A stretch of DNA of 64,000 nucleotides from a virus (IMGVR_UViG_2844225640_000006:8495-72494); one strand, 5' to 3'; counted from the stretch's first letter, positions 21,986-38,549 are shown. A program made the numbers and translations. Notes: generated by a model not told the origin, from the letters alone.

Positions 21986-22473
21986 GGCCACGGGGTCTAA
22001 CCCATTGATATGTAATGACATTTGGCGGCGTCTCACGTGGGCGCGCATGAGGCGGGCACGTGGGCGCATGGGTAGGCGCGTGGGTGGCGTGCACGTGGGT
22101 GCGGGCATAGCGCGCCATGAGCGGGCAGGCATGGGCAGGCGCTGGCATGGCGTAGGGTAGGGCAGACGCCTTCCGGCTTCGCCTTCGCTTCGCTCTGCTA
22201 GTCCTGTTAGCGTATGTGGAATGTGGCTATGTGCACCATGCGCGGCGTCCGGCGTCTGGGCCGTACCTTATCGCCGCTGGCAATAATGGCTTATGGGCAT
22301 TTGTTTGACTCGCCGATTTGAGTCCACGCAAGGGGAAAAGTGAAAAGCCTATCCGCTTTGCACCATAGCCAGCGCCCGCCACCTATCGGCCGCATGTGCG
22401 GTTGACAGCCTATGACGCGGCCTTCCTGCCACCATGGCCCGGCCTGTTTTTTGGGAGATTTGGCGGAAATGTA

Positions 22474-25024: not shown

Positions 25025-25216
25025 ATGCCGCGCCATTGGGAAACACACCTATACACCTACGCCGTCGCCTACCAGCAAGGCGACAAGATCAAGCCTGAAA
25101 ACCTTGCCGGTATGCGCCGCAAGGCGCTTTTGCACGGCCATACAGAAGGCCAATGCCTGCGAGTCGAGCAAGATCCCGGCCTTTACATTCGCACCGGACG
25201 CCTAAGCCCGGTCTAA
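25025..25216 (+). CDS. Hypothetical protein
   Basis: MPRHWETH...; fits operon packing. Confidence 0.5.
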   Translation: MPRHWETHLYTYAVAYQQGDKIKPENLAGMRRKALLHGHTEGQCLRVEQDPGLYIRTGRLSPV

Positions 25217-27117: not shown

Positions 27118-27326
27118 TAGCCGAGTTCTCAACCTATCTGCGCATCTTTGACGTGACCACGTTTGTCTCCGCCGCACAAGAACGAGCCAGAAACGAAGGC
27201 GTCGACGAGAATGACGTCAAAGAAATGTACAACGAGTCCAACTTGGACAATTGCCTCATCATGTTGCTCGATCCATCCACGCTTCCCGGTTGCGAAATCC
27301 TCGAAAGTAACGCCGAGATTGCCTGA
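27114..27326 (+). CDS. Hypothetical protein
   Basis: AGGAG SD, coupled TTG start. Confidence 0.55.
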   Translation: MIAEFSTYLRIFDVTTFVSAAQERARNEGVDENDVKEMYNESNLDNCLIMLLDPSTLPGCEILESNAEIA

Positions 27327-27362
27327 CACCCCGCCAACTATGGCACCACAACGGAGACTCCC

Positions 27363-28268
27363 GTGAATATCATGACCAATCCTCAATCCGTTTCCTCGGT
27401 CCTCGCCAGCCGCGCGATGATTGTTTCCCTGTCCATCTCGCAATGGTCAGGCCGTCGCCTTGACCGGCAGATCACCGACGAGGTCAACCAGAACCACGGC
27501 GCTGCCGCCGACGCTGGCCGCTACAACAAATTGCTCCTCCCGAAGGAAGCATTGGCGGAAATCGTATCCATCGTCGGCGAAACCCGCTCGGACTTCCTCA
27601 AACGCACCTTGCCTTGGATGGACAACGGTAGCCGCATCATGGCAAGCGATGCATATTTGCAGCATATGTCATGGGTGCGCGGTCAGGTCGCCAAGTTCGA
27701 CCGGGCTGTCGACAAATTCCTCGCTGACTACCCGCAATATGTGGCCGATGCCCGTGTCCGCCTGAACGGCATGTTCAAGGACGACGACTACCCCGACGCT
27801 CAAATCTTGCGCAGCAAGTTCGGCGTTGCCTGCAAGGTTCTTCCGGTCCCCACCTCGGAAGACTTCCGCGTGGACATGAGCCAGGCACAAGCTGACCGCA
27901 TCCGCGAGGAGATCGAACAGCAAGTCTCCGACGCCACCACGGAAGCGGTGCGTGATGTTTACCGCCGCGTGGCAGACGTCACAGGACGAATGGTCGAAAG
28001 GCTCAACGCCTACAAGCCAGCCGGTCGTCCGGGTGACAAGACGGAAGGCGTGTTTCGCGACAGCCTTGTCGAGAATGTGCGCGATCTGATTAGCGTCTTG
28101 CCCGCGCTCAACATCATTGGCGACCGCGAGCTTTCCGCCATGGTCGAACGGCTCAAGCCATTGGCCGAGCACAATGCGTCGACCCTGCGCGATAGGCCGG
28201 AGATCCGCCGCGACGTAGCCGATGAGGCTCAGAAAATCCTCGACAGCGTCTCCGGCTTCTTGGCCTGA
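27363..28268 (+). CDS. Helical protein, DUF3150-like
   Basis: LSISQWSG, KLLLPKEAL, TLPW, YPD motifs; same operon as MoxR/vWA genes. Confidence 0.55.
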   Translation: MNIMTNPQSVSSVLASRAMIVSLSISQWSGRRLDRQITDEVNQNHGAAADAGRYNKLLLPKEALAEIVSIVGETRSDFLKRTLPWMDNGSRIMASDAYLQHMSWVRGQVAKFDRAVDKFLADYPQYVADARVRLNGMFKDDDYPDAQILRSKFGVACKVLPVPTSEDFRVDMSQAQADRIREEIEQQVSDATTEAVRDVYRRVADVTGRMVERLNAYKPAGRPGDKTEGVFRDSLVENVRDLISVLPALNIIGDRELSAMVERLKPLAEHNASTLRDRPEIRRDVADEAQKILDSVSGFLA

Positions 28269-28280
28269 GACAAATAGAAT

Positions 28281-28494
28281 TGCAGGAGCGAGGCGCCCGC
28301 TCCTGCATTTGGCGTGGCATGGCTTGGTAGGGCGCGGCGGGGCAGCGCATGGCAGGCATGGCATGGCGCGGCGTGGTATGGCTCGGCTTGGCGCGGCAGG
28401 CTAGGCGCGGCTAGGCGAGGCGCGGCGAGGCAAGGCGCGGCGAGGCCGGGCAGGCTCCCACCCAAAAGCCGCCGCTCTCTGAAAAGGGAGCGGC
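28281..28494 (+). ncRNA. GGY-NN pentamer array 1 (three units: 8, 8, 10 pentamers) with flanking hairpins; candidate guide RNA
   Basis: 5-nt periodic GGC/GGT+NN from 28311 to 28457; GGCA delimiters at 28351, 28395, 28449; 10-bp 5' stem 28281-28307; GAAA-loop stem 28471-28494. Confidence 0.75.
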
Positions 28495-28581
28495 ACCTCA
28501 AAGTTCTCCTCTTCACCGGGGAGCCTTTTGAGGTGTCAGAACGGCACTACGAACCCAATGCAATCATGCATCCAAGGAAAC

Positions 28582-29265
28582 ATGTTCATGGCAAAAGCAG
28601 CAACCAAAGTCGAAACCGGAATCACTCTTCCGAAGCTCAACATCCAGCTCATGGAAGTGGTGGTCATCGGCGACTCCCCGCTCATCGTCCACGCTTGGTC
28701 TGAAAAGGCCAAGAAGGAAATGCTGGACAAGCAGTTGAAGGTAGCGAAGGGCGCTCGTGAAGCGAAAGACCCTGTCGCAGACTTCCAGAACACTATGTAT
28801 CGCTTCGAAGACGGCGGTCACGGCTTCCCGTCCATCGCCTTCAAGGCGGCAGCTGTCACCGCTGGCACATCCGTTGCGGGACTCACCAAGATCGCAGCGA
28901 GACAGGCGTTTCATATGCTCGGCGAGAACGCCGACATTGCCGGTGCTTTTGATGGGGCGCAGTCCCGCACGAACCTCGTGCGAATCCTCGGCTCCGAACC
29001 CCAGATGCGTGAAGACATGGTCAGGGTCGGAATGGGCACGGCAGACATCCGCTACCGTGCGGAATACCCGGATTGGCACGCAAAACTGCTCGTTCGCTAC
29101 AATGCAAACGTGCTGTCCGAAGCACAGATTCTCAACCTCATCAACGTGGCAGGCTTTGCTGTCGGCGTCGGCGAATGGCGCCCCGAAAAGGACGGCAATT
29201 ACGGCATGTACCATGTCGCCACCGAGAAGGAACTGAAGGCGCTTGGTGTGCAATCACCGGGCTGA
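28582..29265 (+). CDS. Stand-alone Cas7/RAMP-like protein
   Basis: VVVIGDSPLIVH, FPSIAFKAA, and C-terminal Gly-rich loop GVGEWRPEKDGNYG in RAMP order; AAGGA SD. Confidence 0.7.
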   Translation: MFMAKAATKVETGITLPKLNIQLMEVVVIGDSPLIVHAWSEKAKKEMLDKQLKVAKGAREAKDPVADFQNTMYRFEDGGHGFPSIAFKAAAVTAGTSVAGLTKIAARQAFHMLGENADIAGAFDGAQSRTNLVRILGSEPQMREDMVRVGMGTADIRYRAEYPDWHAKLLVRYNANVLSEAQILNLINVAGFAVGVGEWRPEKDGNYGMYHVATEKELKALGVQSPG

Positions 29266-29271
29266 AACAAT

Positions 29272-29422
29272 ACAGGGTCGCGTTGCCATCGTGGCCCTGT
29301 TTAGGCGAGGTATGGCAGGCAAGGCAGGGCTTGGCTGTGCGAGGCAGGGCGCGGCGGGGCAAGGCCGGGCAGGCTCACCCACCAGCGGCCAAGGGGCAGC
29401 ATTCAACCGCCCCATTTCTTTT
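29272..29422 (+). ncRNA. GGY-NN pentamer array 2 (one 10-pentamer unit); candidate guide RNA
   Basis: Periodic 29304-29376; GGCA at 29314 and 29368; 5' stem 29272-29300; 3' GGGGC/GCCCC stem plus T run. Confidence 0.75.
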
Positions 29423-29448
29423 CAACAACCAACAGAGGAGTAGCTGCA

Positions 29449-29994
29449 ATGGTAAAGATTGCATCTTACGGCTTCGCAGAGGGTTCCCGTTTCCAGAAAG
29501 GCGCGAATACTTCCGCCCCCGAACTGGTCGGTGAACACCTTGAGACTATCCGCAAGGCGAAAGACGGTAAGCTCACACCCGACGACGTGGTGGCCGACGC
29601 TCGTAATCCCAACTCTCCGCTGCATTCGTTCTTTGAGTGGGACGATTCAGCAGCAGCTCATGAGCACCGGCTTCGGCAGGCTCGCCAGCTGATCCGCACG
29701 ATCGTTGTGCGCTATCAGGAAGTCGAGTCCAAGGAACCGATACGGGCCTATGTTAATGTCCGCTCACCCAACAGTGACAATGGGAATGAACCGGACAGCG
29801 ATGAACCACGTCAGTATTACACCGACACGATCGAAGCGCTCTCTGCCCCTGACATGCGAAGGGCCGTGCTTCTCCGGGCAAAGTCCGAGCTTGACGCTTG
29901 GCGCAAGCGATATGCCGACCTCGAAGAATTGTCCATCGTCGTGCGGACCATCACCAAGATGTCCGAAAAAGTCGGCGAACTGGCTGATGCTTGA
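29449..29994 (+). CDS. Partner protein of the RAMP-like locus (phage hypothetical)
   Basis: LTPDDVVADARNPNSPLHSFFEWDD..A..HRL.QARQLI motif; GAGGAG SD; flanked by arrays 2 and 3. Confidence 0.75.
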   Translation: MVKIASYGFAEGSRFQKGANTSAPELVGEHLETIRKAKDGKLTPDDVVADARNPNSPLHSFFEWDDSAAAHEHRLRQARQLIRTIVVRYQEVESKEPIRAYVNVRSPNSDNGNEPDSDEPRQYYTDTIEALSAPDMRRAVLLRAKSELDAWRKRYADLEELSIVVRTITKMSEKVGELADA

Positions 29995-30010
29995 ACCCAA
30001 ACAAATAATT

Positions 30011-30118
30011 GGCGTGGTGGGGCAGGCAGGGCTTGGCATGGCAGGGCTTGGCTTGGCCCGGTGCGTCTCGTTTCGGCAGGCAAACACGGGGATTCGTTCG
30101 CGGCTCCCCTTTTCTTTT
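30011..30118 (+). ncRNA. GGY-NN pentamer array 3 (one 10-pentamer unit) plus terminator; candidate guide RNA
   Basis: Periodic 30011-30083; GGCA at 30021 and 30075; GGGGA..TCCCC-TTTTCTTTT terminator 30088-30118. Confidence 0.75.
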
Positions 30119-30147
30119 CAGCAATCATGCAAACTAAGGAGACGAGC

Positions 30148-30561
30148 ATGAGTGTGCGCAATCTTCCATCGCCTGTTCGATTCCTCCTCATCCCGGTACT
30201 CGGCGACATCAAAGAGGAACGGTTTACGGTTGCGCCCGCCACGGTGGTTCCCCGTGCCAAACTATTGGAGCATGTGCGGACGTTCTTCGACGAACCAATC
30301 GAGCGCGTGAACGTGCTCTATCGGGGCGAGTACCGCGATATGTTCGTCGGCGAGACGTCGGCCATCAACGGTCGCCACATCCGCAATATCCGGGCGACCG
30401 AAGTCTACCGGGCAAATGCGCTGGAAAATCACTGGCGTCTCAATTCACCCGACCCGACAAAGGCGAAGCCTATCGATTTGTCGTGGACACTCGACCCTGA
30501 AATTCTACCGGCCATCTCTGGTCCGGCGGTTCTGTTCCCAGATTATCAAGTGTGGGAATAA
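30148..30561 (+). CDS. Hypothetical protein
   Basis: AAGGAG SD, ANYA hairpin. Confidence 0.65.
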   Translation: MSVRNLPSPVRFLLIPVLGDIKEERFTVAPATVVPRAKLLEHVRTFFDEPIERVNVLYRGEYRDMFVGETSAINGRHIRNIRATEVYRANALENHWRLNSPDPTKAKPIDLSWTLDPEILPAISGPAVLFPDYQVWE

Positions 30562-30578
30562 CCCCGAAAGGAAACCCC

Positions 30579-30758
30579 ATGTTCATCGTAGCGTGGTCCG
30601 TCAATCACGGCGGCAACAACATCGAAGATCATTGGATCGTCGCTGAGACACAGAAACAGGCAGACGCCGAAGCTGCAAAGCTGCAAAAGATCGACAACCT
30701 GCACTGTTGGGCCGTCTCTGAAATCAAAGCAGGCTCCGAGCCTCACTGGCTCTCGTAA
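30579..30758 (+). CDS. Hypothetical protein
   Basis: AAGGA SD. Confidence 0.55.
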   Translation: MFIVAWSVNHGGNNIEDHWIVAETQKQADAEAAKLQKIDNLHCWAVSEIKAGSEPHWLS

Positions 30759-30800: not shown

Positions 30801-31802
30801 ATGAACCTCAAGTCCGCAACGACTCTGCTCAACCACTTCATTGACGCCGACATTCCGGCATTCATGTGGGGCCCTCCCGGCGTCGGCAAGTCCGCTTCGC
30901 TGCATCAGATTGTGACCGAGCGTAAATGGGGAATGGTGGACTTCCGCGCTTCGACCCGTGACTCGGTGGCGTTGATGGGCCTGCCTGATATTTCCGGCGA
31001 GACCACCCGCTGGAAAGTGCCGGACGAATTTCCGCAGGCCGAACGTGACGGCGAGGAAGGCATCCTGTTTCTCGACGAACTGAACGCCGCGCCACCTTCG
31101 ATGATGGCGGCAATGTTTGGCCTGGTCCTTGACCGCAAGGTCGGCGACTACGTGCTGCCCAAGGGCTGGCGCGTAGTTGCGGCTGGCAATCGTCAGGCTG
31201 ACCGTGCTGCGGCACAGCGTATGCCTACCGCTCTCGCTAACCGCTTCGCTCACATCGACGTCGATGCAGATACGAGCGCCGGACATGACAATGTCCACGT
31301 CGAATACTTCAATCAGATCGGCGTTGATCCGCAGCTCATTGCCTTCCTTCGGTTCCGTCCGGCACTGATCCATTCGATGCCGAAGAATGATGAGCGTGCG
31401 TTCCCAACGCCCCGTTCGTGGGAACAGGCGGCGAAGATCCTGAATCTTCCGACGGCACTCCGCCTGCAGGGTGTATCCGCTATCGTCGGTGAAGGCGCTG
31501 CGGCTGAACTGGAAGGATTCCTTCGTGTTTACCAGAACTTGCCTTCGCTAGATCTGGTACTCGCCAATCCGAACAGCGCGCCTATCCCGGAAGACCCGGC
31601 GGCTCGCTTTGCAATCTCCGCTGGCCTTGCCCGTAAGGTTGATGAGCGGTCTTTCGACAACGGCATGGCTTACATGCAGCGCTTGCCTCGTGAGTTCGAG
31701 ATTATGATGTGCGTCGATGCGGTGCGTCGTGAACCGAAGCTCAGCCATACGCAGACGTTCACTTCGTGGGCCATGAGAAACCAAGACGTCACTCTAGGCT
31801 GA
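30801..31802 (+). CDS. MoxR-like AAA+ ATPase
   Basis: GPPGVGKS, LFLDE, AAGN, ALANRF, PTPRSW. Confidence 0.9.
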   Translation: MNLKSATTLLNHFIDADIPAFMWGPPGVGKSASLHQIVTERKWGMVDFRASTRDSVALMGLPDISGETTRWKVPDEFPQAERDGEEGILFLDELNAAPPSMMAAMFGLVLDRKVGDYVLPKGWRVVAAGNRQADRAAAQRMPTALANRFAHIDVDADTSAGHDNVHVEYFNQIGVDPQLIAFLRFRPALIHSMPKNDERAFPTPRSWEQAAKILNLPTALRLQGVSAIVGEGAAAELEGFLRVYQNLPSLDLVLANPNSAPIPEDPAARFAISAGLARKVDERSFDNGMAYMQRLPREFEIMMCVDAVRREPKLSHTQTFTSWAMRNQDVTLG

Positions 31803-31806
31803 TGCC

Positions 31807-32139
31807 ATGGCAGAAATCCGCGCCATCTTCGGCCCTTACAAGACGGAAGAACAGACCTCGCGCATCACTTGGTTCTTCTCCGGCGTCCGAGCGGACGGGG
31901 AGTTCACGGCGTGGTCTCTCCGTTTTCAATTCGATACGCGGCGCTATACGTGCCGCGTCATCAAGAACAAGCAGGCAGCAAAGTATGCCGCGTCCATAAG
32001 TCATAAAGACTTGTTCAGCCTCCCCGAAGCAGCGCGGTCGGAAGTCAGTTGTGGCCGCGTGACGGACATGCTCAAGGCCAAGCTTTCACCAGAGCAAATC
32101 GCTCGGGCTACGGCGCTGGCTATACAATACAGGAGGTGA
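31807..32139 (+). CDS. Hypothetical protein, paralog A
   Basis: Shares IR..FGP and LK.KLSPE.IARATAL with the next gene. Confidence 0.65.
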   Translation: MAEIRAIFGPYKTEEQTSRITWFFSGVRADGEFTAWSLRFQFDTRRYTCRVIKNKQAAKYAASISHKDLFSLPEAARSEVSCGRVTDMLKAKLSPEQIARATALAIQYRR

Positions 32140-32519
32140 TGATGGCCATCATTCGCAGGGTCTTCGGTCCCTTCCACCCTGAACACATCCATCCGGGCAC
32201 GCAGGCTGAGGAGCTGCGATGGCATTTCATCGGCATCAAGGACGACAAGACGACAGCACACTGGACATTGGTCTTTGACCCTCGCAAGCGAACTTATCGG
32301 GTCAACAACAATACCAGCAGCGGCGGCTTGATTGGCCGCAGCCGAAAGGCATTGATCGCCCAAAAGATAGATCCGGGTGTCAATTGTGAGACTGCTCACC
32401 CCGACGCCTGGCTCGACGACTCTCCAGTCATGGAGGGCACCATCACCAGCATCCTGAAATCGAAACTCTCACCAGAGGATATTGCCAGGGCGACCGCGCT
32501 GGTAATCGCAAGGAGATGA
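32139..32519 (+). CDS. Hypothetical protein, paralog B
   Basis: AGGAGG SD; motifs shared with paralog A. Confidence 0.65.
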   Translation: MMAIIRRVFGPFHPEHIHPGTQAEELRWHFIGIKDDKTTAHWTLVFDPRKRTYRVNNNTSSGGLIGRSRKALIAQKIDPGVNCETAHPDAWLDDSPVMEGTITSILKSKLSPEDIARATALVIARR

Positions 32520-32522
32520 ATC

Positions 32523-32816
32523 GTGCTGACTACCGACGTCATCATGAACAACTTCAGGAAGAGCGACCACGCTGACAATCGCTGGAGCTTTGCTCCGCTT
32601 CCCGAAACCGTTCTCAACACGCACCTTTACTACCTTTCGTTCATCAAGCAGGAGCGGCGGTTCATGCTGTCTCGAAAGCAGATCGTGCCCTTCATCCCGA
32701 TCGAAGATGACGAACTCCTGCAGGCGTTCAAGGCGACACTGCATGCAGACGAAGTGGCTGCGTGCATGAGATCCACTCTCGATCAGGGCGTCGACCCGGA
32801 TGACATTCCATTCTGA
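32523..32816 (+). CDS. Hypothetical protein ending DDIPF
   Basis: AGGAG SD; SSB-like C-terminal DDIPF. Confidence 0.55.
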   Translation: MLTTDVIMNNFRKSDHADNRWSFAPLPETVLNTHLYYLSFIKQERRFMLSRKQIVPFIPIEDDELLQAFKATLHADEVAACMRSTLDQGVDPDDIPF

Positions 32817-32831
32817 TACACGGAGGCCAAC

Positions 32832-33989
32832 ATGAAAACCGAAGACAAGATCCTCGCCGCACAGACGTCGCTACTTTGGGACCAGCCATTCTTTGGCGTC
32901 CTCATGCTCCAGCTTAAAAAGGTGCGGGTGGATGACCCGAAGAAGGTCGATACGATGGCGACAGACGGCCGTCATCTCTTCTACCACCCGCCCTTCGTCG
33001 ATGAGCTGAAGAAGGACGAGCTGGTTTTCGTGCTGGCCCATGAGGTCATGCACAACGCCCTGGAGCATCACATCCGACGCCAGTCCCGTAAGCCCGGCCG
33101 CTGGAACGATGCCTGCGACTACGCCATTAACGGCGAGCTGGTCGAATGCAAGGTCGGCAAGATGCCAGAGCGCGGCCTGCTCGAGGCGCGCTTCACCGGT
33201 CTTTCAGCCGAGGAGATCTACCGTATCCTCGACGACGAGAACAACGGCGACGACTCCGCTGAAGGGCAGGGCGATACCGGTGGTTGCGGTGGAACGATGG
33301 ATGGCTGCGCACAGCACGACGAGGCAGCCAAGGCCGAGCTGCGTGCCGAGATGCAAACGCAGATCAGGCAGGCTGCCATGACCGCCAAGGCTGCGCAGGC
33401 TGGTAAACTTCCGGCTGGCGTGCAGCGTATCATCGACGAGCTGCTCATGCCGAAGGTCGACTGGCGGGCTGTTCTCCGCCGCTTCATCGACGAGTCCAGC
33501 ACCCGTGATTTCTCATGGTCGAGGCCGAACCGTCGCCTGCTTCCGCTTGGTCTGGTTACTCCGGGCACAGTTTCGGATGGCGTCAGCCATATCGTGATCG
33601 CGGTTGACACATCTGGCTCGATCGACGAGCCCACGCTCAATGCCTTTGCTGCCGAGGTGCGGGGAGCATTCGAGGAAGGCTCTGTCGACAAGATCGACGT
33701 GGTCTACTGCGATGCAGCCATCAACCACACAGAGCAATTCGAAATGGGCGACGAGCTGTTCATCCGTGCGGTAGGCGGGGGCGGCACTCGCTTCTCGCCT
33801 GTCTTCGAATGGGTGACCGAGAAAGCAGCCGACACCAAGCTGGTGATCTACCTAACAGACTTGCTCTGCAATGACTTCGGCGACGAGCCGCACTGCCCGG
33901 TTATCTGGGCGCACTATGGAACGAAGAGCCAATTTCAGCAGCTCAGCCCCAACGTTCCGTGGGGTGAGTGCGTACACATCGAGCCTTAG
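32832..33989 (+). CDS. DUF2201-type metallopeptidase-vWA protein
   Basis: TMATDG, HEVMH, N.ACD.AIN, MIDAS DTSGS, GGGGTRF, YLTD. Confidence 0.9.
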   Translation: MKTEDKILAAQTSLLWDQPFFGVLMLQLKKVRVDDPKKVDTMATDGRHLFYHPPFVDELKKDELVFVLAHEVMHNALEHHIRRQSRKPGRWNDACDYAINGELVECKVGKMPERGLLEARFTGLSAEEIYRILDDENNGDDSAEGQGDTGGCGGTMDGCAQHDEAAKAELRAEMQTQIRQAAMTAKAAQAGKLPAGVQRIIDELLMPKVDWRAVLRRFIDESSTRDFSWSRPNRRLLPLGLVTPGTVSDGVSHIVIAVDTSGSIDEPTLNAFAAEVRGAFEEGSVDKIDVVYCDAAINHTEQFEMGDELFIRAVGGGGTRFSPVFEWVTEKAADTKLVIYLTDLLCNDFGDEPHCPVIWAHYGTKSQFQQLSPNVPWGECVHIEP

Positions 33990-33998
33990 GAGGAATAA

Positions 33999-34634
33999 TT
34001 GCCCATCTTACTCGACCTGACTGGCCAGCAGTTTGGCCGGTTGATTGCTATAGCCAGAGATCCAACCGCACGCCCTACACGCTGGTCATGCAGATGTGAG
34101 TGCGGCAACACGAAAGTCGCTGCCACGAACGACCTCAGGCAGGGGAAAACGAAATCCTGCGGCTGCTTGAGAGTTGAAGTGACCGGGGGAAAGAACCGCA
34201 CCCACGGTCTGCGACAGCACCCCCTCTACGATGTATGGCAAAGCATTAAAGACAGGTGCCTAAATCCTAACAATCCTCAGTTCAAAGATTATGGCGGGAG
34301 AGGAATAAAAATCTGCGATGAATGGGCGCACGATGGCGCTGCGTTCATCGCATGGGCAGAAGCCAACGGCTACCGCGCCGGCCTCATCATCGATCGCGAG
34401 AATAACAATTGGGGATACAGCCCCGAGAATTGCCGGTTCGTTACGCGGAAGACCAGCAACCGCAACAAGCGGAACACCAACTACATCGACACTCACCTCG
34501 GTCGCATGATGCTGGCTGAAGCGGTCGAGATCTCCGGCTTGGGCAGGGACACCATCCGACGCCGCTTAAAGTTGGGATGGCCCGCATCAAAGATCCTTCA
34601 GCCCGCCCGAGCGATGAAGAAGAGCAGCAAATAA
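33999..34634 (+). CDS. HNH-type homing endonuclease-like protein
   Basis: DLTGQQFGRL, C.CECG, SCGC, YGGRGI.IC.EW, IDR.NN..GYSPENCR. Confidence 0.8.
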   Translation: MPILLDLTGQQFGRLIAIARDPTARPTRWSCRCECGNTKVAATNDLRQGKTKSCGCLRVEVTGGKNRTHGLRQHPLYDVWQSIKDRCLNPNNPQFKDYGGRGIKICDEWAHDGAAFIAWAEANGYRAGLIIDRENNNWGYSPENCRFVTRKTSNRNKRNTNYIDTHLGRMMLAEAVEISGLGRDTIRRRLKLGWPASKILQPARAMKKSSK

Positions 34635-34663
34635 CCCACCACCCGGCATGAAAGGATAATTCC

Positions 34664-34975
34664 GTGCCCCACACACAAGGACCGTGGGCGGTCGACGACT
34701 GCCCGCTCGACATCGAACATGCCTGCACCATGCTCAAGGTCGATGCCAATACGCCACGAGAATGGGTGGGTATCTGCACCCCTCGCGATGCGGACGGCAA
34801 CTACGAGCACGTTGCTTACTGCCACATATCGAATGCTCCGGTGATCGCAGCCTCCACAGTGATGCTGGATCTCCTGCGCCGCAATCTCAATGCGTGGGAA
34901 GACGAAGAGGATTCCGTGCAGGAAGAGCACGAGGAACTGATCGTCGATCTGCGCCAGTTTCTGAAGGACAAGTGA
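34664..34975 (+). CDS. Hypothetical phage protein (HT.GPW family)
   Basis: HTQGPW...NA..IAA motif. Confidence 0.65.
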   Translation: MPHTQGPWAVDDCPLDIEHACTMLKVDANTPREWVGICTPRDADGNYEHVAYCHISNAPVIAASTVMLDLLRRNLNAWEDEEDSVQEEHEELIVDLRQFLKDK

Positions 34976-34976
34976 C

Positions 34977-35189
34977 ATGCCTAGCTATCTCGTCACATGG
35001 GAGATCGACATCGATGCCGAGACCGCACATGACGCGGCTCGGCAGGCACATGAGATCGTCCGCCGGCCGGATACATCGGCCAATGTCTACAAGGTCATCG
35101 AACATGACAGTAGCAGCGAGACGGTAACGGTTGATCTTGAAGAGGACGCGCCTCCACCGCCTCCAGATTGGAACGTGCGTCATGGTTAG
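34977..35189 (+). CDS. Hypothetical protein
   Basis: ORF packing in the operon. Confidence 0.55.
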   Translation: MPSYLVTWEIDIDAETAHDAARQAHEIVRRPDTSANVYKVIEHDSSSETVTVDLEEDAPPPPPDWNVRHG

Positions 35190-35236
35190 CCAGCACCTTC
35201 GAAACACCACTCGCAATCATGCGAAAGGAAGAGAAC

Positions 35237-35821
35237 ATGACGACCAAGTTCCGCGATCAACAAAGCTTCAACCACCTCCAGATGGAGGCAGCTCTCTGTG
35301 CCTGGGAATGGATGCTGGAGAACAACACGCACGAGATATTCAACGGTATGTTCGATAGCCATGGCTACGGCGCGATGCGCCATTGCGCCATGCAGGCCGG
35401 CGACATTGCCAACCTGGTTTACAAGCATATGGAAGTGCGGGGTTACGAGTTCGTCGACGCCTACGATTGGGAGTTCGTGCCGGGCGTGCTGCTCCGACTG
35501 GATTGGGAGAAGCTCTTCATGGACAACCAGTACAACGAAGAGCCTTACCAGCCTGACATTCACGCCATCTTCTGCGCCATGGTCTCCGCCGACTTGGCAG
35601 CTCACACCGACCCGCAGCGCCGCAGCTTCCAGAAGAAAGAAGACACTGCAATCTGGATCACCAAGGCCCGTGCTGAAGCCGAGAAGCAATGGGGCTACAG
35701 CGATCTCGTCTCCGATCACCCGGAGAAGGTGACGGCTGCCATGGAGCGCGACGAAGATCCGGCCGAGTTCATCAAGTGGCTCGGCGAGAAATACAATCTC
35801 ACTCCGGCGCCGGGGTTGTGA
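35237..35821 (+). CDS. Hypothetical protein
   Basis: AAGGA SD, ANYA hairpin. Confidence 0.65.
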   Translation: MTTKFRDQQSFNHLQMEAALCAWEWMLENNTHEIFNGMFDSHGYGAMRHCAMQAGDIANLVYKHMEVRGYEFVDAYDWEFVPGVLLRLDWEKLFMDNQYNEEPYQPDIHAIFCAMVSADLAAHTDPQRRSFQKKEDTAIWITKARAEAEKQWGYSDLVSDHPEKVTAAMERDEDPAEFIKWLGEKYNLTPAPGL

Positions 35822-35824
35822 CGC

Positions 35825-36010
35825 ATGCAAGACTTCGTCGTCACAATGACCCTCGAACTCGTCGTTGAAGCCGACAACCCCGGCTCGGCTGTGTCCGATA
35901 CGGTCATCCGCCTGCAGAAATTGCTTGAAACTCACGACCCGCTGCTGTTGAGTTCTATGCTACGGGAGGCGGTTGCTTATACAGCTGCCAAATCTCCCTG
36001 TAGGATTTAG
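35825..36010 (+). CDS. Hypothetical protein
   Basis: ORF packing in the operon. Confidence 0.45.
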   Translation: MQDFVVTMTLELVVEADNPGSAVSDTVIRLQKLLETHDPLLLSSMLREAVAYTAAKSPCRI

Positions 36011-36028
36011 CGGGCAAGGGAGGCTCAA

Positions 36029-36235
36029 ATGGAAGAAGGCTTTTTCCATTCACCATTCAACATCATCGCTATTGGAATCATTCTCTTCTTCTATTTCATG
36101 CCGACGATCTTTGCATTTCGCCACGGACGACCCGACTCGTGGGCTATATTGATTATCAATACAGCTTTCGGGTGGACGCTTATCGGTTGGATTGGCTCGA
36201 TGTTCTGGTCGATGGCTCCTGTCCAACGGCAGTAA
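36029..36235 (+). CDS. Superinfection immunity protein (T4 Imm-like)
   Basis: YFMPT.FA..H...AI.IIN...GWTLIGW...WS pattern; GGAGG SD. Confidence 0.85.
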   Translation: MEEGFFHSPFNIIAIGIILFFYFMPTIFAFRHGRPDSWAILIINTAFGWTLIGWIGSMFWSMAPVQRQ

Positions 36236-36256
36236 TGCACTCCTCATAAACACACC

Positions 36257-36289
36257 AAAGGCCGGGTCATTCGCCCGGCCTTTTCTTTT
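36257..36289 (+). terminator. Intrinsic terminator
   Basis: AAAGGCCGGG..CCCGGCCTTTTCTTTT. Confidence 0.7.
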
Positions 36290-36330
36290 CTACCCCCTCG
36301 CAATCATGCGACCCCACGGAGATCTATACC

Positions 36331-37491
36331 ATGAGCAATATCGACAACGTCACCGCCACTGTTTCGACTGCTTCTCTCAACTACTCGGTTTTCAGGAAGG
36401 CTATTGAGAACGCCTGCAAGATCGTCGAACGTCGCAACATCATCCCCGTTCTCGATACCGTCCTCATCAAGGCGACGACGAATGGCGTCTATGTTCTCGG
36501 CACTGACCTCGACATCTGCACCACGACCTTTGTGCCGGGCAATGTATCCAAGGACTTCACCGCTCTGGTCGATGCTCACAAGCTCAAGGCCACAATGGAT
36601 AAGGTGAAGGATGCTCCGGCCATCAACTTCGCCATGTCGCAGAAGAAGCTCACTGCCAACATCGGGAAGCTGAACCTGACATTGAAGCAGGATATTCCAG
36701 CCGAAGATTTCCCTGAAAGCCACGCCTTCCGGGACCGGTTGAGTGAGTCAAACCATACGTTCACGCTGCCGTCAGCCACGCTGCTCAAAATCCTCAACAA
36801 GGTCCAGTTCGCTATCTCCACGGAAGAGACGCGGTACTATCTCAACGGCGTGTATATGCACGTCATCGAGAACTCGCACCACATCACCTTCGTCGCCACG
36901 GACGGCCACCGGCTGGCTCGATATGAGATGCCTGCGCCAGAAGGCGCAAACGGTATCCCCGCTGTCATCATCCCTCGCAAGACAATTGTTGAACTGATGC
37001 GGCTCCTCAAGCGCAAGGGCTGCCCGGAAGAAACGATGATCACGGTTTGCAAGACCGGCGTTCGGTTCACTGTCGGCGAGGACGAGACCGTGGACAGCAA
37101 GGTCATCGACGGACAATTCCCGGATTACACCCGCGTCATCCCTATGAACAACGATCACCACGCCACGATCTATCCGGCTTCCTTCATTGACGGCGTCAAG
37201 CAGGCCAGCGCGGTTCTCCCTTCAAAGGGCGGCTCGGTCTCGGTCAACTTCCTGCGGGGGATAGCCTCTCTCACGTGTCGTGATGTCGACTTCGGTGAAG
37301 CATCCGTCGATGTCTCGATTGAGAACGAGCGGTCGCTGGAGATCGGATTCAACGCCCAATACCTGATCGACATCCTTTCGCACGTCGATGGTGAAGCGAA
37401 GTTCATGCTCATGGGCGCTGGAGATCCGGTCGTCATCCGCAACTCGGACGATGATTACCTGACCTTCGTTCAGATGCCGACGCGCATCTAA
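36331..37491 (+). CDS. dnaN: Phage-encoded DNA polymerase III beta clamp
   Basis: RNIIPVL, TDLD, EETRYYLNG, ATDGHRL, IIPRK, IDGQFPDY.RVIP, GFNAQYL, MP.R. Confidence 0.93.
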   Translation: MSNIDNVTATVSTASLNYSVFRKAIENACKIVERRNIIPVLDTVLIKATTNGVYVLGTDLDICTTTFVPGNVSKDFTALVDAHKLKATMDKVKDAPAINFAMSQKKLTANIGKLNLTLKQDIPAEDFPESHAFRDRLSESNHTFTLPSATLLKILNKVQFAISTEETRYYLNGVYMHVIENSHHITFVATDGHRLARYEMPAPEGANGIPAVIIPRKTIVELMRLLKRKGCPEETMITVCKTGVRFTVGEDETVDSKVIDGQFPDYTRVIPMNNDHHATIYPASFIDGVKQASAVLPSKGGSVSVNFLRGIASLTCRDVDFGEASVDVSIENERSLEIGFNAQYLIDILSHVDGEAKFMLMGAGDPVVIRNSDDDYLTFVQMPTRI

Positions 37492-37583
37492 CCACCCTCC
37501 GTCACACCTCAACACCCACTGCGATGGCGCTCCTCTCGGGGCGCCATATCGGGGCGTGTTGCCCTTTTTCAACGGAGAACAAT

Positions 37584-38549
37584 ATGAAAAAGTTTAGCAT
37601 CATCTTCATCGCATCCCTCGCTCTTTCGACCTCGTCTGCCCTTGCTTCCGATGGCTGCACCGGCAGTGCCACGCTTATGAAGTGGCTTCAGGGTTGCCGC
37701 GATCTTCCGAGCAGCGTGCGGGTTATCGACCACTCCGGTGGCGACCGCACCCCAGGCGCTAAGAGCTCCTCGGGTGGTAACGGTGCAGCCAGTGGCGGAG
37801 AGTCCAGCGCCAATGCTGGCGGCAATTCCGGCGGAACCAGCGGCACTACCAACAACGGCAACTCCGGCGGCTCCAGCAATGCTGGCAACTCTGGCGGCGG
37901 CAGCAACGGCGGTTCGAACTCCGGCAGCACTGGCGGCGGCAGCAACGGCGGTTCGAACTCCGGCAGCACTGGCGGCTCCACGGGTGGAAACACTGGCGGC
38001 TCCGGCAATTCCGGTGGCGATACTGGTGGTAACTCCGGCGGTGATACCGGTGGGAACAACGGTGGAAACACTGGCGGGGATACCGGCGGTAACACCGGAG
38101 GCGGCAGCGACAACGGCGGCGGCGACACCGGTGGCAATACCGGCGGAGGTGACAACGGCGGTGGCGGTGACACTGGCGGGAACAACGGCGGTGATAATGG
38201 CGGTGGCGACACTGGCGGCGGTGACACTGGCGGGAACAACGGTGGCGACAACGGAGGGGATAATGGTGGCGACACCGGCTCCGGCGGTAACAACGGCGGC
38301 CACAATGGCGGAGACCACACCGGCAACGGCCCAGGTAATGGCAATGGCAACGGCGGCAACCACGGCAATGGTGGCGGAAACAACAACGGCTCCGGTCCAG
38401 GTTCGGGTAACGGCGGCCACAACAACGGCAATGGCAACGGTAACGGTAACGGCCATGGCAACAGTGGTGGCAATGGTCACGGCAATGGCGGTGGCGGCAA
38501 TGGAAACGGAGGCGGTAATGGCGGTGGCGGAAAGGGTGGCCGCCACTAA
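37584..38549 (+). CDS. Secreted Gly/Asn/Asp/Thr-rich low-complexity protein
   Basis: Signal peptide MKKFSIIFIASLALSTSSALA, two Cys, then GG(D/N)(T/N) repeats; GGAG SD. Confidence 0.7.
   Translation: MKKFSIIFIASLALSTSSALASDGCTGSATLMKWLQGCRDLPSSVRVIDHSGGDRTPGAKSSSGGNGAASGGESSANAGGNSGGTSGTTNNGNSGGSSNAGNSGGGSNGGSNSGSTGGGSNGGSNSGSTGGSTGGNTGGSGNSGGDTGGNSGGDTGGNNGGNTGGDTGGNTGGGSDNGGGDTGGNTGGGDNGGGGDTGGNNGGDNGGGDTGGGDTGGNNGGDNGGDNGGDTGSGGNNGGHNGGDHTGNGPGNGNGNGGNHGNGGGNNNGSGPGSGNGGHNNGNGNGNGNGHGNSGGNGHGNGGGGNGNGGGNGGGGKGGRH
37891..37968. repeat. 39-bp tandem duplication (2 copies)
   Basis: CTGGCGGCGGCAGCAACGGCGGTTCGAACTCCGGCAGCA twice. Confidence 0.85.

Follow-up and report, generated by a model that had tools for sequence, protein, structure and literature searches.

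A provirus locus whose GGCA-punctuated GGYNN arrays are very probably guide-RNA genes of a VIPR system

What the tetranucleotide GGCA does within a run of pentamers, and what the run itself encodes, are the questions raised by array 1 (28311-28457), an intergenic GGYNN repeat in a virus-derived DNA of 64,000 nucleotides (IMGVR_UViG_2844225640_000006:8495-72494). This whole analysed stretch, referred to below as the window, lies within an IMG/VR provirus record of 72,494 bases. The original prediction, made from the sequence alone, took the GGCA-GGC break for a mark that separates guides and the two variable bases of each unit (NN) for the informative ones. Both ideas agree with the vrRNAs and the staggered arrays of the published VIPR systems, a vipr gene adjoining the arrays, and in this way the prediction had arrived at a guide-array concept that is already in print. 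The three GGYNN arrays of the window are very probably vrRNA genes of a provirus VIPR system, which also comprises a vipr gene and a candidate vap gene, and in which GGCA ends each guide.

VIPR (Viral Interference Programmable Repeat) is an RNA-guided DNA silencing system related to CRISPR, and according to the available text of its description it is composed of a RAMP-like Vipr protein of about 20 kDa, an accessory gene (vap) and vrRNAs of 9-16 YNNGG repeats (10.64898/2026.04.26.720920). The NN dinucleotides pair with double-stranded DNA, every third base being skipped; the systems silence competing phages and satellites, fall into seven types and are found mostly in viruses and proviruses (10.64898/2026.04.26.720920). 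Vipr is described as a small RAMP homologue with an RRM core, a thumb and a glycine-rich loop, and in the described systems vrRNAs are expressed and co-purify with it. In the SUSP1 complex each pentamer is bound by one Vipr protomer, each GGY is held by two neighbouring protomers together and the NN is exposed (10.64898/2026.04.26.720927). The 'staggered arrays with overlapping vrRNAs' are mentioned in one sentence and in the legend of Fig. S18, where individual vrRNAs arise from positions overlapping by 1 nt, the end of each thereby indicating where the next begins (10.64898/2026.04.26.720920). In the main text and legends of that preprint the GGCA motif is neither named nor given statistics. 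Three further VIPR preprints of 2026 are concerned with structure, with satellite competition and with a language-model survey that recovered 99 period-5 clusters; in their available text the word 'staggered' was not found, nor was 'GGCA' where it was searched for. VIPR and its staggered arrays are thus already described in 2026 preprints, and the system presented here adds a member, not the concept.

Array 1 is built of 8 + 8 + 10 GGYNN units on the plus strand, and behind each block stands a 4-nt GGCA, which moves the register by -1. The first guide, A1-1 (28311-28350), comprises the eight units GGCGT, GGCAT, GGCTT, GGTAG, GGCGC, GGCGG, GGCAG and CGCAT (NN = GT, AT, TT, AG, GC, GG, AG, AT), and its end mark, GGCA with the -1 register break, is read directly at 28351-28354. 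The second, A1-2 (28355-28394), has eight units with NN = AT, AT, GC, GT, AT, TC, TT, GC and is closed by GGCA at 28395-28398. The third, A1-3 (28399-28448), has ten units with NN = TA, GC, TA, GA, GC, GA, AA, GC, GA, CG; its GGCA, at 28449-28452, is followed by GGCTCCCACCC, and both of these marks are likewise direct sequence reads. The triplet of array 1 is GGC throughout, except for GGT at 28326 and 28375 and CGC at 28346. When the array was read directly, the coordinates and dinucleotides given for it in the original prediction proved right to the base.

Two more arrays of the same build occupy the next two intergenic regions (29304-29376 and 30011-30083), also on the plus strand. Array 2 opens with a leader stub of two units, GGCGA and GGTAT, with their own GGCA (29304-29317), and continues with guide A2-1 (29318-29367), whose ten units carry NN = AA, AG, TT, TG, GA, AG, GC, GG, AA, CG, the triplet of the fifth being TGC; GGCA follows at 29368-29371. 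Array 3 begins in the same manner with GGCGT, GGTGG and GGCA (30011-30024), and its guide A3-1 (30025-30074) has ten units with NN = AG, TT, AT, AG, TT, TT, CC, GC, TC, TC, ending in a degenerate pair (GTCTC, GTTTC), before the GGCA at 30075-30078. The window holds in total five full guides (8, 8, 10, 10 and 10 units) and two 2-unit leader stubs. In relation to the published range of 9-16 repeats, the two 8-unit guides reach 9 units only if the overlapping GGCAG is counted. One G is common to GGCAG and the next GGCNN at 28351-28359, 28395-28403, 29314-29322 and 30021-30029. In its layout the locus has, as far as the legend of Fig. S18 describes it, the staggered-array architecture, and the GGCA-GGC junction corresponds to the 1-nt overlap named there. 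Every guide-sized block, including the last one of each array, is followed by GGCA, and none precedes the first block of array 1; therefore GGCA is read as a 3' end mark rather than as a 5' mark.

The array feature is far beyond chance. The pattern (GGCNN)4GGC has 12 matches in the window compared to 0.00 in 100 dinucleotide-preserving shuffles, and a looser one (4 units, at most 1 mismatch) has 35 compared to a shuffle mean of 0.98 and a largest value of 4; 34 of these 35 matches are on the plus strand within three consecutive intergenic regions. A 5-nt period and G-richness are also what would be found in a pentanucleotide microsatellite made by slippage, or in a G-rich tract prone to quadruplexes or R-loops, in which the NN would be void of information. 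Two-layer quadruplexes could in principle arise from GG tracts spaced by 3 nt. The NN vary from unit to unit within an array and also from one array to another; their diversity was the argument of the original prediction against simple slippage. For most of the period-5 and period-15 rows of the arrays, Tandem Repeats Finder gives matches of only 67-73%, with one period-15 row at up to 90%. These features speak against a microsatellite or quadruplex tract, which is considered hardly credible. Among the 49 tandem-repeat rows of the window there is no long direct repeat of the CRISPR type (23-50 nt). Two other repeats were recorded elsewhere in the window. One, at 22034-22089, consists of 2.4 copies of a 20-nt direct repeat (consensus CACGTGGGCGCATGAGGCAGG) in which a 12-nt repeat is nested, and could serve as an operator or iteron. 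The other fills a 341-aa ORF at 37524-38549 with GGC-rich tandem repeats that overlap one another and measure 9 to 54 nt, giving about 20 rows in Tandem Repeats Finder; the ORF probably encodes a Gly/Asn/Thr-rich repeat protein.

The gene that follows array 1 (28588-29265, plus strand) encodes a 225-aa protein, assigned below as a homologue of SUSP1 Vipr with a RAMP fold and with the C-terminal G-loop AGFAVGVGEWRPEKDGNYG. Pfam gave no match for this protein or for the 181-aa product of the next gene, and PHROGs gave only families of unknown function. A profile of the 225-aa family (27 sequences) matches PDB 36pp_D, 'SUSP1 Vipr protein', with E = 8.8e-13, the next match having E = 0.93; the single window sequence, whose similarity to 36pp_D is low, matches it over the G-loop with E = 0.0014. 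The AlphaFold model of the protein (pLDDT 88.3, pTM 0.83) has 59 Foldseek matches in the PDB at E <= 0.001, with a best E of 1.2e-5 and TM of 0.34-0.51, in a fold library that is older than the Vipr PDB entry. All the matches listed are chains of type III Csm/Cmr, type VII or Cas7-11 CRISPR effector complexes. In SUSP1 Vipr, the GGY is reported to be held by H17, R138, D177, W178 and R179 (10.64898/2026.04.26.720927). In the window protein they align with H35, R157, E196 (a D to E change), W197 and R198. All 27 aligned sequences have R157 and R198, whereas W197 is lost in some, and the alignment contains the G-loop AGxxVGxGExRP. The profile match to SUSP1 Vipr, the matches to RAMP-complex folds and the aligned GGY residues together lead to the assignment that the 225-aa protein is, judged from alignment and predicted fold, a Vipr.

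The family to which this protein belongs is widespread. It has 121 matches in species-representative genomes and 64 viral relatives in IMG/VR, and 80 of the 121 genome matches carry titles from Alphaproteobacteria, Acidobacteria, Actinobacteria, Firmicutes, Bacteroidetes, Planctomycetes and others. The closest Vipr relatives by protein identity reach 80% among viral sequences (IMG/VR) and 78% among species-representative genomes, and the nearest genome relatives are found in Hyphomicrobiales, e.g. Rhizobium leucaenae, Phyllobacterium and Chelativorans, with 75-78% identity. At the DNA level, no near relatives of the locus were found in phage or plasmid collections.

After the second array, at 29449-29994 on the plus strand, lies the 181-aa gene, a candidate vap (Vipr accessory protein), the product of which has an N-terminal alpha/beta domain and a C-terminal helix of about 48 residues. 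In the 154 loci with both genes it is always on the vipr strand (154/154), and in 150 of them it is directly downstream of vipr. Foldseek found nothing for its fold at E <= 0.001, only faint, non-significant winged-helix-like matches (E >= 0.11), and a wide VIA search with the protein was filled by matches to the long C-terminal helix. In the window, one array precedes vipr, one lies between vipr and the candidate vap and one follows vap, each in an intergenic region of its own; in the closest relatives that were inspected the arrays form mostly one block after vap. Downstream of the VIPR locus (window 30801-37491) are genes for a MoxR-like AAA_5 ATPase (30801-31802), a DUF2201 VWA/metallopeptidase protein (32832-33989), an HNH endonuclease (33999-34634) and a phage-encoded DNA polymerase III beta clamp (36331-37491). 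The AAA_5 ATPase, the one downstream neighbour compared, had 0 matches next to vipr in relatives.

The linkage of protein and arrays, and the generality of the mark, were determined in sets of loci picked in two ways. Among at least 120 IMG/VR contigs picked by pattern (at least 8 exact GGCNN units), translated searches found a homologue of the 225-aa protein in 39 of the 120 listed contigs at E <= 1e-5 (47 at 1e-3), and a homologue of the 181-aa protein adjoins it in such contigs. Because this first set had been chosen for its repeats, the count of GGCA was redone on loci chosen by protein alone, 80 from species-representative genomes and 64 from IMG/VR. Runs of at least 5 exact GGYNN units are present on the vipr strand in 58 of the 80 genome loci and on the other strand in none (0/80), and in the viral loci the corresponding values are 45/64 and 6/64. 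GGCA makes up 81 of the 108 4-nt junctions in the genome loci and 73 of the 80 in the viral loci, while neither protein-picked set has 4-nt junctions on the other strand. The remaining 27 of the 108 junction units in the genome loci, which differ from GGCA, come from more distant relatives. This occurrence, tied to one protein family across phyla, already contradicts a microsatellite, in which an invariant phase mark at guide-sized intervals would also be out of place.

The strand bias bears also on the proposal that the arrays act as DNA, i.e. as iterons or operators for a replication, partition or regulatory protein of the phage, for which the 5-bp period would provide a phased surface. An intergenic position in an early or replication-type module, with a beta clamp, an HNH protein and an AAA ATPase downstream, would suit such sites, as would the faint and non-significant winged-helix-like matches of the candidate vap. 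Nevertheless, this role is very improbable. A duplex site needs no orientation, whereas the arrays are co-oriented with vipr (0/80 genome loci on the other strand), and the protein to which they are linked belongs to the RNA-binding RAMPs and has a homologue whose structure was solved with such RNA. Moreover, across relatives the GGY is fixed and the NN is hypervariable, which is the opposite of an operator co-evolving with one protein.

In the 39 pattern-picked loci with the 225-aa homologue and in the window, the register shifts by -1 at 131 of the 161 junctions between adjacent repeat runs. Strict 4-nt units in the same loci are GGCA in 73 of 76 cases and have A in the fourth place in 74 of 76; T never replaces C in the mark (0/76), in spite of the GGT found in other units, and the opposite strand has no such 4-nt units. 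The gap between successive marks of these 76 units is mostly 39-69 nt, i.e. 7-13 units. In the protein-picked sets, 89 of the 144 loci contain 256 guides bounded by GGCA, which are mostly 40-65 nt long (8-13 units), and 77% of their lengths are multiples of 5. On these counts the GGCA break is general and not a local accident of array 1. The invariance of both C and A in the mark argues for a sequence-specific recognition, and not for spacing alone; the agent that recognizes GGCA could be a terminal protomer, an accessory protein or a nuclease.

The same counts bear on the possibility that each array is one long guide, in which GGCA is an irregular unit tolerated as a bulge within a single filament, array 1 then yielding a single vrRNA of about 29 units. 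This has in its favor that staggered arrays are not among the architectures confirmed by small-RNA sequencing, which in the available text of the preprint are the ribozyme-interspersed and the single-vrRNA ones (10.64898/2026.04.26.720920). A single long guide is nonetheless improbable. The spacing of GGCA clusters at 8-13 units, the size range of characterized vrRNAs, and the mark is invariant in sequence, whereas a bulge need not be. The legend of Fig. S18 has individual processed vrRNAs (10.64898/2026.04.26.720920), and in the SUSP1 structure, as far as it is described, a pair of protomers holds the GGY with two bases between motifs, which a 4-nt unit presumably cannot provide (10.64898/2026.04.26.720927).

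Two relatives differ in the element that stands between guides. In one viral contig (L016, 1995-2348) GGCGTTCA and one further base, in total 9 nt, take the place of GGCA between the guides and again shift the register by -1; since this separator differs from GGCA, the delimiter can differ between clades while the register shift is kept. In another (L078, 3377-4420) the arrays are very long, with more than 20 guide blocks, and at three points a conserved element, about 35 nt in length and starting with GGGAGCAGCAGCATCCGGCG, interrupts them. This element, which matches no Rfam family, may be a processing element comparable to those of the ribozyme-interspersed arrays of the preprint.

The gain or loss of whole units in relatives had been named in the original prediction as a check on the role of GGCA. 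In the related viral contigs L246 and L257 the 4.2 kb that lead up to the array are 93% identical, and the two have in common an identical 25-nt leader and two guides (48/49 and 45/45 nt identical) at shifted positions. Their other guides are unrelated and differ in number, and each block of homology starts and ends at GGCA, which is not to be expected if the array were one long guide. In this pair whole guides have been swapped at GGCA; two near-identical pairs (L163/L165 and L252/L253) differ by point changes only. A stricter screen of 53 loci flagged no further turnover pair and is conservative, as L246/L257 was also left unflagged by it. With one informative pair, two pairs with point changes and no others from the screen, cassette turnover at the marks has been seen once, by comparison of sequences, and is not established as a rule.

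The flanks of the arrays were inspected for structures that could accompany the guides. A stable terminator-like hairpin with a 12-pair stem (28281-28307, plus strand) separates array 1 from the upstream gene, whose stop is at 28268, and the segment that contains it (28270-28312) folds at -19.2 kcal/mol (z -3.9). The 3' flank of array 1 (28453-28545, plus strand) starts with GGCTCCCACCCA, common to array 2, and contains two strong hairpins before the ribosome-binding site of vipr; from the last GGCA onward (28449-28545) the predicted energy is -47.8 kcal/mol (z -5.0), and 0 of 200 shuffles were as good. The 3' flank of array 2 (29372-29423, plus strand) consists of GGCTCACCCACC and a terminator-like hairpin (29393-29413) with a U-run (-17.1 kcal/mol, z -1.8). 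In that of array 3 (30079-30119, plus strand) a hairpin (30088-30109) is predicted together with UUUUCUUUUC, the whole being likewise terminator-like with a U-run, and the overall z is only -0.4. Fold predictions gave no structure common to the three flanks, which share only GGCAGGC and, in two of the three, TC.CACCCA. A conserved structured 3' tail such as the pseudoknot of type II is absent, and inside array 1 a guide is followed by GGCA only. A scan of 27300-30700 found 0 sigma-70-like promoters, and Rfam has no known RNA family at the arrays of the window or in the relatives L078, L016 and L246. Elsewhere in the window there are two sub-threshold Rfam matches, probably due to chance: STnc310 with 32.8 bits (gathering threshold 40) and BjrC1505 with 28.9 (50), at 25077-25138 and 36141-36288, respectively. 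Public sequencing runs contain this stretch only as assembled metagenome contigs, each run with a small share of it, labelled RNA but probably DNA; four of them consisted of fragments and of cross-matching arrays from other organisms. Metagenome contigs from wastewater runs pile up at window 28363-28469, with a summed depth of 84-310 compared to <20 nearby. These contigs join unrelated GGCNN sequence, i.e. they are cross-matching arrays of other organisms and have no bearing on this locus, and the pile-up suggests that GGCNN arrays are common in the wastewater habitat.

The DNA targets of the guides were searched for with strings of guide NN under the rule of one skipped nucleotide, the reversed pattern or a shuffled order serving as controls. 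For the five guides nothing rose above these controls in the window, the related loci, the genomes, IMG/VR or the metagenome collection. Within the window there is no self-target at up to 2 mismatches, and only the arrays matching themselves, at skip 3, exceed the shuffled-order controls. A1-3 had 4 matches compared to 4 for the control in five related genomes (at most 3 mismatches), and 12 compared to 9 in 401 genomes of Hyphomicrobiales, the likely order of the host (at most 2 mismatches); its single match with 1 mismatch lies in a 582-aa ORF, the only Pfam match of which is a sub-threshold PQQ_2/BamB repeat. In exact scans of IMG/VR, 9 units of A1-3 gave 2 matches compared to 1 for the reversed control; A2-1 (9 units), A3-1 (10 units) and A1-2 plus AG gave 0 each, and A1-1 plus AG gave 1, in a contig of 40% GC. 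An exact metagenome scan with 10 units of A1-3 gave 1 match. Two matches of A1-3 inside ORFs (L221, 5404-5432, and L288, 814-842), the only exact ones at 20/20, were judged to be due to chance because they lie in DNA of about 50% GC and their skipped base falls on codon position 2, not on the wobble position. The collection scans, in which only exact matches counted, would miss targets that match at 80-95%, and matches of 80% were accepted in the preprint. Since the large scans allow no mismatch, this null result is only weak negative evidence. When the NN were taken as codon positions 1-2, the log-likelihoods per unit (sense -2.82, antisense -2.84, background -2.79, uniform -2.77) were not separable.

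The mechanism that can be proposed for this locus relies on the described systems for most of its steps. The strand bias suggests that the arrays are transcribed on the plus strand. Each Vipr protomer would then bind one pentamer, holding the GGY and exposing the NN, as in the SUSP1 structure, a mode of binding that homology and the conserved contact residues make plausible here. By analogy with SUSP1 and Pseudomonas fulva, the exposed NN string may pair with double-stranded DNA, skipping every third base, and this pairing may silence the transcription of a competing mobile element. In the staggered clade each guide would end in GGCA and be joined head to tail to the next, no structured tail intervening. 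The mark leaves one base, not two, between GGY motifs, which should break the 5-nt register needed by a continuous filament, so that a filament presumably could not cross it. In this manner GGCA would delimit guides of 8-13 units, and it probably marks the site at which the transcript is cut. Cutting of the array transcript at GGCA is judged somewhat more likely than not. A further-reaching and more tentative proposal, to which slightly less than even credence is given, is that GGCA alone is the whole guide-delimiting signal: the -1 shift together with the specific A would stop the Vipr filament and direct the cutting of the transcript, replacing both the tail of type II and the crRNA handle, and the marks would be the points at which phages exchange guides as cassettes.

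If GGCA were the sole signal, it would be the shortest known punctuation of an RNA-guide array, and if it alone sets the boundaries, multiplexed synthetic vrRNA arrays with 4-nt separators would be feasible. For the staggered architecture, this locus and its relatives supply a concrete rule: a guide of 8-13 pentamers ends in GGCA, the mark is on the vipr strand only, and breaks of homology fall at marks. With the staggered-array VIPR systems the locus has in common a Vipr RAMP homologue and an adjoining candidate accessory gene in a provirus, as well as intergenic arrays of GGY/NN pentamers on the gene strand, the guides of which abut with a 1-nt overlap. With type II VIPR, as described for Escherichia phage SUSP1 and a Pseudomonas fulva prophage, it shares a homologous Vipr, the residues that contact GGY and a similar guide length. 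In these two characterized systems, however, the vrRNAs are separate and have a structured tail; those of SUSP1 are transcribed singly, measure about 100 nt and carry an invariable 3' tail folded into a pseudoknot, whereas in the window only GGCA is constant after a guide. CRISPR arrays, near which cas genes lie, and the Cas7-family RAMPs of Class 1 are similar in that a variable guide is bounded by a constant mark, that the protein has a RAMP fold and that guides appear to turn over as cassettes. They differ in having a repeat of 23-50 nt and contiguous spacers, while in the window the mark is of 4 nt and 2 of every 5 bases are informative.
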